This document shows, piece by piece, positions 15,760-63,870 of a stretch of 64,000 bases of DNA. The DNA lies in assembly GCF_028641065.1 (NCBI RefSeq), contig NC_073385.1, positions 59,768,001 through 59,832,000 of the forward strand, in the 5' to 3' direction. The notes under the pieces were generated by a model, which saw nothing but the letters and a program-made list of their open reading frames with translations, was not told the DNA's origin and did no database searches. Origin of the DNA: Leucoraja erinacea (taxonomy: Eukaryota). How positions within the stretch are numbered: position 1 is the stretch's first letter; every line of letters starts with the position of its first letter. The translations under genes were made by a program, and so were the position numbers.

Positions 15760-15885
15760 ATGTCCACCACTGAAGATAAAATAAAAAATGTGGAGGTGAA
15801 AGATTATGACTATTGTGGACACACGATGAAGATTAGTCTGTTTAAAGAATCATCCTTAGGCGTCTCTGCTTACGTATGGGGACCA
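15760..15885 (+). CDS. EEF1AKMT3: EEF1AKMT3/METTL21B-like lysine methyltransferase, paralogue A, coding exon 1 (42 codons)
   Basis: ATG at 15760. Translates MSTTEDKIKNVEVKDYDYCGHTMKISLFKESSLGVSAYVWGP, matching the family's F/Y-x-FCGH-x-L-x-I...LGVAA-x-VW segment. Donor CCA|GTAAGT at 15886, phase 0. Confidence 0.9.
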
Positions 15886-18279
15886 GTAAGTGCAATGGTC
15901 TGTTACACACACAATCCTGACATTGTTTTTGCAAATGTTCGTGCATCCTTTGGCCGCATTGGCTTGTGTTGGGGGTAGGTATAGGTGGCAAGTACGCGGT
16001 GTCCGGAAGTTGCTCCAGCTTTGATTTTGGGACAGTGTGACATCACTCCCTCGGTGGGGAGTGAGGCTCCTTTTGCGGTTGAGGATTTTCAAATAGCGTG
16101 TCAATGCCCTTTCCCCAGCCTTATTGCAACCGAGGTACATTCGGGTTCAGGGAGAGACGCTGAATATTTCTCGGGTTGGATTGTAAAAAGAGTCTTCATT
16201 TAATTACCACACAGCAAGCCCAACACGCGATGGGAAATTTGAAGGAGACCTGGAAGGTGTATCAATGAGGGACACACTTTGCTCACAATTATTATAATTC
16301 AGGGTTGGAATAGGCATCGTTATGGAAAAGACAAAGGCTGGTTTGGTGGCACAGCTAGTAGAGCTGATGCCTCACAGCTTCAGCCACCCGGGTTCGATCC
16401 TACCCCTGTGTTGTTTGCGTGGAGTTTGCACGTTCTTCTTGTGGCCGCGTGTGTTTCCCCCGGGCGCACCGGTTTGGAGTCATGGGGCTATAGAACCTAG
16501 ACACAGGGCCTTGGATACAATTTGTCCGATCCGACCAAGGTGTCTATCTCAGCTGGTTCCCTTGGCCTGCCTTTGGCCCATGTTAAATGACAACCTAAAG
16601 CGTGTGAAGTTAGAAAATCTCTCGGGCCTGATTGGATATAACGAGGATACCATGGGAAGCGAGGCGAGGGGGTAAGTCGGATTAGATTTAAAATAAGTTA
16701 CTGATGAGGGTTAACTGAAAACAACTGCTTGAAGATAAATCAAACATAAAGCAGCAGGTGTGGACGAGATCAGCAGAGAACCGGGAATTATTGAGGAATT
16801 CGCTAAGGTTCAAAACAGGTTAATTATTATGCCTATAGGAAGCACACCCCAGGGCCTTTAAGGTATTAGAAAAAGAATAAGTGAAGGTTTTGACCAAATA
16901 TTTTCTTGAAGCTGAAGGACTTGTCGCCCATTTTTACTGAGACTTTGGAGTTTACTTCCACTGATACCGGCAACCTGAACAACAGGGAGATAAGGTGATG
17001 GGATAAAAACCATGTACAATACTTCCCTTGACCTGGCAGTACTTCCCGTGAAGGTGTAACAGTAATGAGGTCGCGTTGTATAAAACAGTACGCGTGTGAA
17101 CGCAATTCCGACTGGCATATCTGTCGCGATGTAAAACCTTCCGACTTCATCACTGTTACTAAGTGCAGCAATAGTCTAGACACCAAGTGAAAAAAATCCA
17201 AGTTCCAGGCCGTTCTTGGGGACGAGGAGGTAAGAGGTGGGTGGGGGTGGGTGGGGGGAGGAGGTGAAGGGCAGAGGCGTCCCGTCTGCCAAACATGTTT
17301 ATAAAAGCGATTTGCAAAACAAAGGAAAACTACTTCAGAGTTTGGCGGACTTTCATTATGTTGGCTGGGGTGGGAGATTGCAACCTTCACTGTTTCGACG
17401 AATGCAATCGTGCACAAACGGAAGACAGTGCACAAACGGAAGATCAAACAGAACAAGTTGTCTTACAACTTGAGGCTGTGCACGCCATACGCAAGAAGAA
17501 ATAGATTATAGGTAGACAAAAGCGCTGGAGAAACTCAGCGGGTGCAGCAGCATCTATGGAGGGAAGGAAATAGGCAACGTTTCGGGCCGAACCCCTTCTT
17601 CAGACTGGCTACCTTCGATTTTCCAGCATCTGCTGTTCCTTCTTAAACAAGAAATGGATTATGTTGGCTGTTTATCCTTGGTAGCGGAGTATAGGTGGAG
17701 TGTATGGGGGTGGAGTTGGAGGCTGGTTTGTAACGAGCCCTTGCTTTCCCTTCGCAGCTCTCTGGAAATTTTTGAGCAAGTTGTGATGCGCCCCGATAGG
17801 ATGTTATCTGTGGTGCATCTGCAGATGTTGACAAGAGTCATTGGAACTATGTTCCCATGGTTTCTGGGGTTGAAACTCATTGTTTCATTCCAACTGCCTT
17901 TCCAACTGCAGGGCCTTTAGCCCGTGAAGCGTATTTATAATGTACTTTTGCATTTTGCTTTTACTTTTTAGTCTGATTTGCATTGTGCTTTCACAGAGAA
18001 CAATGCTTGAGTGCTGAATGAAGATATTGGTAAAAATGCTTCACGGAACGCGGCTTTCCGTCACATTTCTCTCGTCGCTTTTAATCCCTCAAACGCCGTT
18101 CTCATTTAAATGCAGGATATCGACTGCTTCCGCGGGATTCCGAGGGCTGTCCTGAGGTTCTTACATGGAATTACTTTCTACCCACCGAGTTCACTGCCTC
18201 CGCCCTACCCCCACAGTCCCGCATTGTCCTCTGTGCTGTGAGCCGTGCCGAAATTGATATTTGCCTGTTTCTTTTTCAG

Positions 18280-18391
18280 GGTCTCGCTCTGTGTCAGTTC
18301 TTTCAGGAAGAGAATGTTGATTTTACCGGGAAGAGGCTGCTGGAACTTGGGTCGGGAAGCGGTATCGTGGGGATTTTAGCCACGTTGCTGG
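18280..18391 (+). CDS. EEF1AKMT3: Paralogue A, coding exon 2 (SAM-binding motif I)
   Basis: Acceptor ctgtttctttttcag|G. Translates [37 protein letters not shown](G). Donor G|GTACGT at 18392. Length 112 nt, as in all four paralogues. Confidence 0.93.
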
Positions 18392-18780
18392 GTACGTTCA
18401 TTGTTCATGTTAACTGTAGTTAGCTCTTCATTTACATTTTCTAGCCCATCCCCAGAGTTTACCTCGCTCAACTTGCTGTCCAAATAACCGTGCGCGGTGC
18501 CTATCTATGTATTCACTCTTTATCATGCCAATGATATGTAGTTTAGTTTAGTTTAGTTTAGTTTATTATTGTCATGTGTACCGAGATACAGTGAACGTTT
18601 TTTGTTTCCGCGCTATCCCGTCAAAGGATAGACTAAGCACGAATGCAATCAAACAGACGACAGTGCGCATGTAAAGGATAATGGTACATCATTTAGTGTA
18701 AGACACAAAACATTTAAATATTTTAAAGTTTGTTTAATTAATTCCTTAATTATGTCACCCCTTCTTCTCCTCTTATTGCA

Positions 18781-19229
18781 TATTTATCCTCTATCAGTGT
18801 ATGCTTAGTAAACCGATTATTACCAATATAATAATATTATGGAGTCACTGGAAGGGAGGTTGTTTTGTTTACTTGTCTGGGCTACGTCTCGGCTACGTCC
18901 GGGGTACGTCTGGGCTACGTCCACAACTCTTTGCAATTTCTTGCTGCCTTGGATGGAGCTGTTCCCAAACCAGGCTGTGATGCATTCTGATAAAATGCTT
19001 TCTACGGCGCATTCGTAGAAGTTGGCGAGGGTTGTTGCTGACATGCCGAACTTTCTAAGCCTTGTAAGGAAGTAGAGAGGTTGCCGTGCTTTCTTGGCTA
19101 CAGCATCGATGTGGCTGGTCCAGGACAAATGACTAGTGGTATTTATCACTATATCATATTGGTCATATCACCATATTATTATATTGGTAATAATCGGTTT
19201 ACTAAGCATACACTGATAGAGGATAAATA
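18781..19229. repeat. Perfect 57-bp inverted repeat bracketing the Rex1 fragment
   Basis: 18781-18837 is the exact reverse complement of 19173-19229. Confidence 0.9.
18845..19150 (-). mobile_element. Rex1/Babar-type LINE fragment
   Basis: Reads LSWTSHIDAVAKKARQPLYFLTRLRKFGMS...FYECAVESILS.CITAWFGN...KLQRVV. Confidence 0.8.
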
Positions 19230-62359: not shown

Positions 62360-62460
62360 TCCCCAATTTATGCTGCTGCATGCGATTGCCCAATAAATTT
62401 GGACGCGCGATTGGCTGTGAGATGTTTCGATACACCACAAGGTTACATAACCGGAAGTTT
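62360..62460 (+). promoter_or_regulatory. Putative TATA-less promoter of paralogue D (CCAAT x3, D-box, ETS)
   Basis: CCAAT at 62363 and 62390, ATTGG at 62410. GTTACATAAC 62442-62451 (reverse matches RTTAYGTAAY) abuts CCGGAAGT 62451-62458, about 80 nt before the ATG. Confidence 0.55.
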
Positions 62461-62536
62461 AACTCTTCTCTCAGATTCGACTCCGAGCTCGCCACGAAGG
62501 TTCACATAGGTCGAACAAGAGGGGAAACTCGAACAA

Positions 62537-62707
62537 ATGGCAACCACACAGTATGGCCAACGTCCCAAGTACGACAGCGGCGAGAATGATGATTATGAAT
62601 CGACGACTTTAATCCGCTGGAACAACTTCGAATTTTGTGGATTTAGTTTGAAGATCGCTCGAATGATGGATTCAAGATTGGGTATCTCCTCGTATATTTG
62701 GGACGCG
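62537..62707 (+). CDS. EEF1AKMT3: EEF1AKMT3/METTL21B-like paralogue D, coding exon 1 (57 codons)
   Basis: caaATGG start. Reads ...NNFEFCGFSLKIARMMDSRLGISSYIWDA. SRLG..WDA is the closest of the four to mammalian METTL21B as I recall it (SRLGVAARVWDAA). Donor GCG|GTAAGT at 62708. Confidence 0.9.
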
Positions 62708-63758
62708 GTAAGTCCATTGCGTTAGTCGTGTAGAGAAACAAGCTAAATATAATGCCACATATCTTATCAGTTTAGCGGATTCATGTTATCCTTTTCTTCC
62801 TGTTTTCTGTTACTATGAAATACATTTCCTGAAAAAAAAGTCTAACAAGCACATCAGAGATAAGATACCGCGCATACGTCCCACGAATTATAAAAACATA
62901 TTATTTTTAACCTATCAAGTGCCTTATGTTGAGGGACTTTTCTGCAGAAAAAAAAGGTGAAATTATCGATCAACCTGATAATCACGTATCATCATGCCTA
63001 GCCTGCATTTCCACCCGTTACGTCCCCGCCGACCCCCCTTACGATTTCACGCATGTGATCCCAGCTGCTAATTGAACATCAAGCCCCAGCCCCGCACTAA
63101 TTTCCGACGCTCGCGGTTTAACAAAAAGGCATCGCATTAGTAAACATCGTCGATGCACAGGTCACACGAAGAATAGGGCAAGGCCCACTCCCCTTGCATC
63201 TCTGTATCACGATGTGCAGTTGCGTCCGATGTGCGGCCCATTCATCGAGCCGCCCATTCATTGACGAAAGGTGCGAGAGAGATGCTCCCAATTGTTTTAA
63301 GCGTGTTATGGAGATATTCAGCCTAACTCCATCCTAAATTGTAGGCGGGCGAACCAATCCTCCCTCCTCAGAATCTATCACAGAGTCAACCACTGAAAGC
63401 TATCACAAAGATGAACCGGAATTGCGCTCCATTTATTCCGCATTTGTTAGATAGATTCCAATTGCCCTGGCCAACCCCCTTCCGTTTAACCTAAACTGGC
63501 TGCTGAAATGTCCTTACATCATTCGGGGGGATTAAACTTTGAATGATCTGAATTGGTGAGACGCTTTGAGATATCCTTGTGCTGTGGAATGTTCTCTGCA
63601 AACAGACCTTAAAAGAAGGTCAGCCCCACACTCATTTGTCTGGATTAGGAAGTAATCGGAGTTCCTCTTTCAACTGTCTTCTTTAATCTCTGCAAATCGT
63701 TATTTGATCTAACTTCCACAATCTAATAGTTGAGCCTTCATGTTTCCAACCTTTTCAG

Positions 63759-63870
63759 GGCGTTTCTCTTTGCCAGTACTTTGAGAAGGAGGACGTCAGT
63801 TTCACTGGGAAGAAAGTGATTGAGCTGGGATCCGGCACTGGAATCGTAGGCATATTAGCAGCTCTGTTAG
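63759..63870 (+). CDS. EEF1AKMT3: Paralogue D, coding exon 2 (gene continues beyond the window)
   Basis: Acceptor tttccaaccttttcag|GGC. Translates [37 protein letters not shown](G). Donor G|GTGAGT at 63871. 112 nt. Confidence 0.92.

Follow-up and report, generated by a model that had tools for sequence, protein, structure and literature searches.

Lysine methyltransferases of the METTL21 type usually exist as one gene per target. The human enzyme of eEF1A Lys165 is EEF1AKMT3 or METTL21B, which the available text of PMC5416902 describes as vertebrate-limited and of scattered distribution. Multiplication is on record for FAM86/EEF2KMT, another lysine methyltransferase of family 16, whose 16 copies are mostly pseudogenes and limited to higher primates (accessible part of PMC10238732). 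Here we describe a likewise multiplied but different family in the skate Leucoraja erinacea, encountered in a stretch of 64,000 nucleotides (nt) of its genome (G000:C9:59768001-59832000, hereafter the window, where G000 is the genome and C9 the contig). The skate holds at least 16 intact METTL21B-like copies, all with three exons and canonical splice sites and 36-75% identical to one another, many of which appear older than the shark-skate split. We regard it as probable that they represent an ancient, chondrichthyan-wide family of METTL21B paralogues, maintained by purifying selection, which are likely protein-lysine methyltransferases dependent on S-adenosylmethionine (SAM) and probably have targets other than eEF1A Lys165.

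The window contains the complete METTL21B/EEF1AKMT3-like genes G1 (+), G2 (-) and G3 (+), followed by the first two exons of a further such gene, G4 (+). All four share an exon 2 of 112 nt, uninterrupted reading frames and GT-AG introns in phases 0 and 1. Strands, architecture and coordinates are as given in the first-pass annotation; its statement that at least four intact copies are present holds for the frames, but exon 3 of G4 lies outside the window and the array comprises seven genes. The gene models are as follows, positions being those of the window unless a contig is named.

15760-21439, + strand: G1, whole gene, 205 amino acids
15760..15885, + strand: G1 exon 1, with the ATG, a beta-hairpin, loop 1 and the conserved Trp
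18280..18391, + strand: G1 exon 2, 112 nt, with SAM motif I
21060..21439, + strand: G1 exon 3, with the DxxY motif and stop; PF10294 match
31704-26506, - strand: G2, whole gene, 213 amino acids
26506..26903, - strand: G2 exon 3, PF10294 match
29367..29478, - strand: G2 exon 2, 112 nt
31573..31704, - strand: G2 exon 1
41635-47787, + strand: G3, whole gene, 224 amino acids
41635..41802, + strand: G3 exon 1, with TATAAA 57 nt upstream of the ATG
43061..43172, + strand: G3 exon 2, 112 nt
47393..47787, + strand: G3 exon 3, PF10294 match
62537-63870, + strand: G4 within the window, exons 1-2 only
62537..62707, + strand: G4 exon 1
63759..63870, + strand: G4 exon 2, 112 nt
G000:C9:59834910-59835313, + strand: G4 exon 3, about 2.9 kb beyond the window edge, completing a 228-amino-acid frame

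Pairwise identity among G1-G4 is 46-61%. G2, G3 and G4 are already annotated automatically in RefSeq: they are letter-for-letter identical to the database proteins P0369, P0201 and P0032 (XP_055496914.1, XP_055496916.1 and XP_055496919.1), each labelled 'EEF1A lysine methyltransferase 3-like [Leucoraja erinacea]', while none of the fetched database proteins is identical to G1. The introns had been called not recognisably alike, and indeed the matches among those of G1-G7 fall at unrelated positions and in both orientations, as inserts of short or long interspersed nuclear elements (SINEs or LINEs) would give; intron similarity thus seems confined to what look like mobile-element inserts and not to reflect positional homology. 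Exon layout was tried as a marker of METTL21B and rejected, since the single METTL21A gene on C7 of the skate has an identical 112-nt exon and identical intron phases, and the layout is therefore not diagnostic of the subfamily.

Beyond the window, the tandem array on C9 continues with G5 (+), G6 (-) and G7 (+), making seven intact genes that end at C9:59909543, and no further array copy beyond G7 was found in 354 kb of sequence around the array. Another nine intact copies are scattered outside the array: three are on C14, while C6, C27, C127, C288, C1476 and a different part of C9 have one each; the total of 16 is a lower bound, as the genome search scored the best candidates only. A seventeenth copy (G000:C9:66255130-66267397) is intact in exons 1-2 but badly degraded in exon 3; its counterpart in Amblyraja (P0069) is intact, and the skate copy would represent either a recent loss or an assembly error. 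Part of G6 exon 1 recurs as a near-identical 89-bp copy about 1.1 kb upstream of the G6 start (G000:C9:59865650-59865745).

The assignment of these genes to METTL21B draws on motifs, structure and phylogeny. Motif I, the post-I acid and a D/E-x-x-Y/F motif are present in G1-G7, and PF10294 (cut-off 21 bits) is matched at 109-116 bits by the whole proteins of G4, G6 and G7 and at 56-61 bits by exon 3 of G1-G3. Human METTL21B is the best solved-structure match of G6 and G4 (E 8e-57 and 2e-53), with METTL21A (E 1e-29 and 2e-31), METTL21C and METTL21D far weaker. The predicted structure of G4 (predicted local distance difference test 88.9, predicted template modelling score 0.85) superposes on METTL21B (PDB 4QPN) with a root-mean-square deviation of 1.0 at 45% identity, indicating a seven-beta-strand fold in the model. 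In all trees the copies join METTL21B, apart from METTL21A/C/E, and the METTL21B group, paralogues included, is separated from the latter with support of 92/99, of 100/99 with 15 outgroups, and of 99 in a third tree; fused, partial and duplicate models and some redundant tetrapods were excluded (20 rows in the full tree), and two of the trees were built on subsets of 67 and 56 rows. An origin of the copies from different METTL21 subfamilies is rejected by this support, and tree and structure match agree with the METTL21B-type identity first proposed. METTL21A (HSPA-KMT), although it shares PF10294, the 112-nt exon and the intron phases, differs in forming a separate clade and in having only 33-40% identity over exons 2-3. 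From their sequences, the skate copies are thus best classed as Methyltransferase family 16, METTL21B subfamily in the broad sense, and not as the EEF1AKMT3 orthologue.

Homologue searches, read as the best 120 of 904 and the best 120 of 351 matches, revealed multiple copies in at least ten sharks, in several rays and skates, and in Callorhinchus, which has at least six on one 24-Mb contig; the guess that the DNA came from a cartilaginous fish is consistent with this range. In the trees, both shark and ray copies accompany each of G1, G2, G4, G6 and G7; G3 is placed with copies from skate and sawfish, within a clade that also has shark members, and G5 with shark copies. Since G1-G4, G6 and G7 all sit in clades that contain shark genes, their duplications would be older than the shark-skate split, placed at about 286 million years ago in the accessible part of PMC10115646. 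A recent skate-specific duplication is rejected on the same clustering and on near-saturated synonymous sites. A profile search of 50%-identity representatives gave a similar range: 83 of the 150 listed were put on the tree, 14 of them falling in paralogue groups, and the six of these that were looked up by name were all chondrichthyan, as are all named members of the paralogue clade, whereas two teleost proteins and one bird protein looked up in the same way were placed with the orthologue. The METTL21B-type gene appears to have been kept as one gene in bony vertebrates. The family thus seems to be ancient across cartilaginous fishes, spread over several chromosomes and common to sharks, rays and chimaera. 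The lineage-specific expansion suggested earlier holds as to its chondrichthyan membership, but is neither a local four-gene event nor one of skates.

Selection on the paralogues is purifying. A codon model over 16 paralogues and 209 codons gave an approximate omega (dN/dS) of 0.200 (log-likelihood -9062.9 versus -9465.7 at omega 1), and Nei-Gojobori (NG86) ratios for 15 of the 21 array pairs are 0.11-0.31, the remaining six being saturated. These values bear out the suggestion that the copies are kept under selection, and the alternative of pseudogenes or assembly duplicates is rejected by the open frames, by the omega of this order and by copies at most 75% identical. As for expression, the full-length protein P0207 equals G4 in 227 of 228 residues across both junctions and comes from an assembly contig of 1,342 nt; with a gene spanning 4.8 kb, a spliced G4 RNA is implied. 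The C14b2 copy has five records of this kind, a protein on a short assembly contig. When four sequencing runs were compared with G3, three short low-depth contigs covering exon 3 and the 3' flank were retrieved, with no splice joint among the matches listed; they came from two runs only guessed to be RNA and are not used as evidence.

The true orthologue is found in a clade of its own, made up of shark and ray genes of which two carry TSFM isoform names. The synteny check proposed in the first-pass annotation places the METTL1-TSFM locus of the skate on C40 and not at the C9 array. Between METTL1 and TSFM only exon 1 of the orthologue is present (G000:C40:7448356-7448514), its frame open but altered at sites that other rays conserve, in two cases to proline; exons 2-3 were not found by tblastn or nhmmer in 120 kb of gap-free C40 sequence, nor elsewhere in the genome. 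Among the matches listed, the orthologue occurs in sharks, Mobula, Hemitrygon and Pristis and in none of three skates, an absence that is weak as Narcine and Callorhinchus also yield none. Judged from this assembly and from database absence, and not from reads, loss of the EEF1AKMT3 orthologue in skates is quite likely. Annotation of these genes is uneven: the METTL21B orthologues of Pristiophorus and Mobula are labelled 'elongation factor Ts isoform', and that of coelacanth 'METTL21A' (P0068, P0073, P0222, P0103).

One alternative is that the copies have subfunctionalised and still methylate eEF1A, at Lys165, at neighbouring lysines or on eEF1A paralogues, by tissue or condition, covering for the broken orthologue. 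The skate eEF1A genes on C5 and C21, two of three, retain Lys at position 165 (a numbering deduced from the Ser163/Lys165 context given in the available part of PMC5416902), the assembly appears to contain a truncated syntenic orthologue, and human METTL21B is stress-inducible and tissue-variable according to the accessible parts of PMC5416902 and PMC10238732. However, sharks and other rays retain the orthologue alongside the paralogues, most paralogues have lost residues that at least 90% of the orthologues, sharks and mammals included, have in common, and subfamily-specific loops are not predicted by a shared target, all of which makes this alternative unlikely. The third eEF1A gene of the skate (G000:C26:17625709-17626299) has Asp at the Lys165 position.

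The residues concerned emerged from a comparison of 74 orthologues with 119 paralogues, in the numbering of a 226-residue mammalian protein. The SAM and catalytic residues W57, E81, G83, G85, D104, W133, D151 and Y154 are conserved in both sets, in 90% or more of the sequences of each. Motif I, DxxY, the conserved Trp residues and the fold as modelled for G4 are common to EEF1AKMT3 and the paralogues, members of one clade. Two signatures derived in this alignment, SKMR.EH and an N-terminal acidic-aromatic motif, occur in 67 and 58 of the 74 orthologues, respectively, and in none of the 119 paralogues. At twenty positions that are fixed in orthologues, paralogues mostly have other residues, with clusters in the N-terminal arm and at residues 44-61, 155-158 and 181-186; V52, A53, L105, L155, T158, K181, E185 and H186 are among the residues so replaced.

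A template for these segments is METTL21D/VCPKMT bound to p97 (8HL7), with a pocket of W43, D144 and Y147 that the paralogues keep and three substrate-gripping loops; at about 28% identity, its contacts need not carry over exactly. The available text of PMC10339199 describes three loops around the substrate loop, with V38, W43, Y147 and Y148 holding the lysine, and V38, Y148 and E174 as pocket lining or p97 contacts. Among the altered residues, V52, L155 and K181 correspond in the alignment to METTL21D V38, Y148 and E174, and the paralogue-variable segments as a whole to the METTL21D substrate loops. With loop bounds set after the alignment had been seen, and in 9 of the 16 listed groups, loop identity is 0.77 within versus 0.34 between subfamilies, as against 0.78 versus 0.58 elsewhere in the protein (block shuffle p 0.0003). 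Distinct specificities that have become fixed would account for such a pattern better than would drift or an arms race.

An arms race would correspond to birth-and-death turnover under conflict with pathogens or in the germ line, the copies methylating foreign or fast-evolving proteins. Some groups do turn over or have long branches (C14b, the dispersed copies and catshark-specific copies), and the copy at C9:66.25 Mb is intact in Amblyraja and decayed here. The main array subfamilies, however, roughly match the orthologue in their conservation across sharks and rays (0.76-0.81, against 0.83 for the orthologue), and within each subfamily the loops vary little; as an account of the family this is improbable, although conflict-driven turnover may apply to the faster groups. 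It could also be proposed that the paralogues have lost catalysis altogether or modify something other than proteins. G1 and G5 lack an acidic residue after W57 (in G1 exon 1, a Gly follows the conserved Trp, where Asp or Glu is usual), and the equivalent METTL21D D44 carries most of the p97 binding (PMC10339199, accessible part); moreover, in the C14a group Glu takes the place of the Asp in DxxY. Against this, 118 of 119 paralogues have an intact motif I and 108 of 119 a strict DxxY, and the modelled G4 fold is that of METTL21B, leaving this proposal very unlikely. The Glu of the C14a subfamily (G000:C14:12265215-12276165) is found in all eight shark and skate members listed and may alter the methylation state reached.

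We favour a mechanism in which a METTL21B copy would have left the METTL1-TSFM locus, multiplied by tandem and dispersed duplication before the shark-ray split, and each resulting copy then fixed its own substrate-gripping surface. Each enzyme is predicted to bind SAM at motif I, while the Trp/DxxY pocket would hold one lysine of a folded protein, which would then be methylated. The idea of new targets stems from the loop differences. A stronger version, to which we give somewhat less than even chances, is that cartilaginous fishes have a private repertoire of at least ten lysine methyltransferases, each with its own target fixed for about 300 million years, that skates have dispensed with the parent eEF1A Lys165 enzyme while keeping its offspring, and that this methylation layer is absent from bony vertebrates.

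Several observations tell against the main interpretation. The omega is approximate because synonymous sites are near saturation, and no spliced evidence like P0207 was obtained for G1, G2 or G3. The time of origin, in the chondrichthyan stem or before the bony-fish split, is root-dependent: in the 67-row tree the chondrichthyan genes are all united (100/99), orthologue and paralogues being sister groups, whereas in the 56-row tree with 15 outgroups the chondrichthyan orthologue joins bony vertebrates (88/69), FastTree runs agreeing, and an approximately unbiased test, on a group named after the trees had been seen, did not reject the older origin (p 0.25). Of the METTL21B-derived clade predicted at the outset, the grouping with METTL21B stands, while derivation from the chondrichthyan orthologue shares this dependence on the root. 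The loop test carries the choice of bounds and groups mentioned above, the link between loops and substrates is borrowed from METTL21D, and METTL21D E174A retained about 80% of its activity (available part of PMC10339199). Finally, surface loops could differ by drift, although conservation within subfamilies argues otherwise.

Cartilaginous fishes retain urea, as does the coelacanth. The first-pass annotation had speculated that extra lysine methylation shields proteins from urea-derived carbamylation, and the range of the family does coincide with the urea-retaining cartilaginous fishes. Nevertheless, most human seven-beta-strand lysine methyltransferases modify one or two sites on one protein (Table 1 in the accessible part of PMC10238732), a single-site habit that makes for a poor fit with bulk protection; the coelacanth, as a weak counterpoint, has one METTL21B-type protein in the two lists of best 120 matches; and literature on carbamylation, elasmobranchs and urea yielded nothing relevant. 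The proposal therefore finds little favour here, and we hold it to be highly improbable.

The family is annotated automatically yet apparently unstudied. No account of a chondrichthyan METTL21B expansion was found in the open literature, subscription journals being outside coverage, and neither 'methyltransferase' nor 'METTL' occurs in the main texts of the shark and skate genome papers PMC8455134, PMC11979771 and PMC10115646; 12 of the 24 supplements of PMC8455134 were searched, and the family may be listed in the remainder or in gene-family tables from other genome papers. The available main text of a metazoan METTL survey (PMC8662637) mentions no shark, Callorhinchus or expansion, and the accessible parts of PMC10844748 and PMC13410288 contain nothing on this family. 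The description as an undescribed enzyme family is thus supported in that no paper was found, but the existing RefSeq labels qualify it. For about 100 shark and ray proteins, the name 'EEF1A lysine methyltransferase 3-like' probably gives the wrong function. Stable paralogues with a shared core and three differing loops would offer a natural series for studying lysine choice on folded proteins, and the family may be useful for finding new methylation sites; if the orthologue is indeed lost, skates would represent a natural knockout for eEF1A Lys165 methylation.

The array lies on C9 between a calpain gene and an array of G protein-coupled receptor (GPCR) genes. The former, upstream of the array (G000:C9:59675940-59714786, + strand, PF00648), presumably resembles calpain 3; the latter (G000:C9:59925000-60012000) is a young tandem array with units 92-98% identical and rhodopsin-family frames (PF00001), at least one of them broken, which we take to recall GPR139/142-like receptors. 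A Pfam scan of 49 of the 57 downstream non-repeat frames named a neighbour in none, with one weak match below cut-off. Within the window, an interrupted LINE (49638-55537; 403-residue frame, endonuclease and reverse transcriptase) is flanked by the arms of a long inverted repeat (48306-48774 and 56005-56658; 96-99% complementary), a second LINE with a 789-residue reverse transcriptase frame lies between G2 and G3 (34691-37732), and a minisatellite of about 15 copies of 18-19-nt units occupies 13512-13859. Two further findings concern METTL21C/E-type sequences. One gene of this type has a second copy of its last exon about 4.5 kb downstream of the first (G000:C6:72142674-72147589), with a late stop in the duplicate. 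In addition, P0227, P0228 and P0229 are unnamed long proteins with three to six such domains in tandem, which points to a further tandem expansion or to gene models that have been fused.

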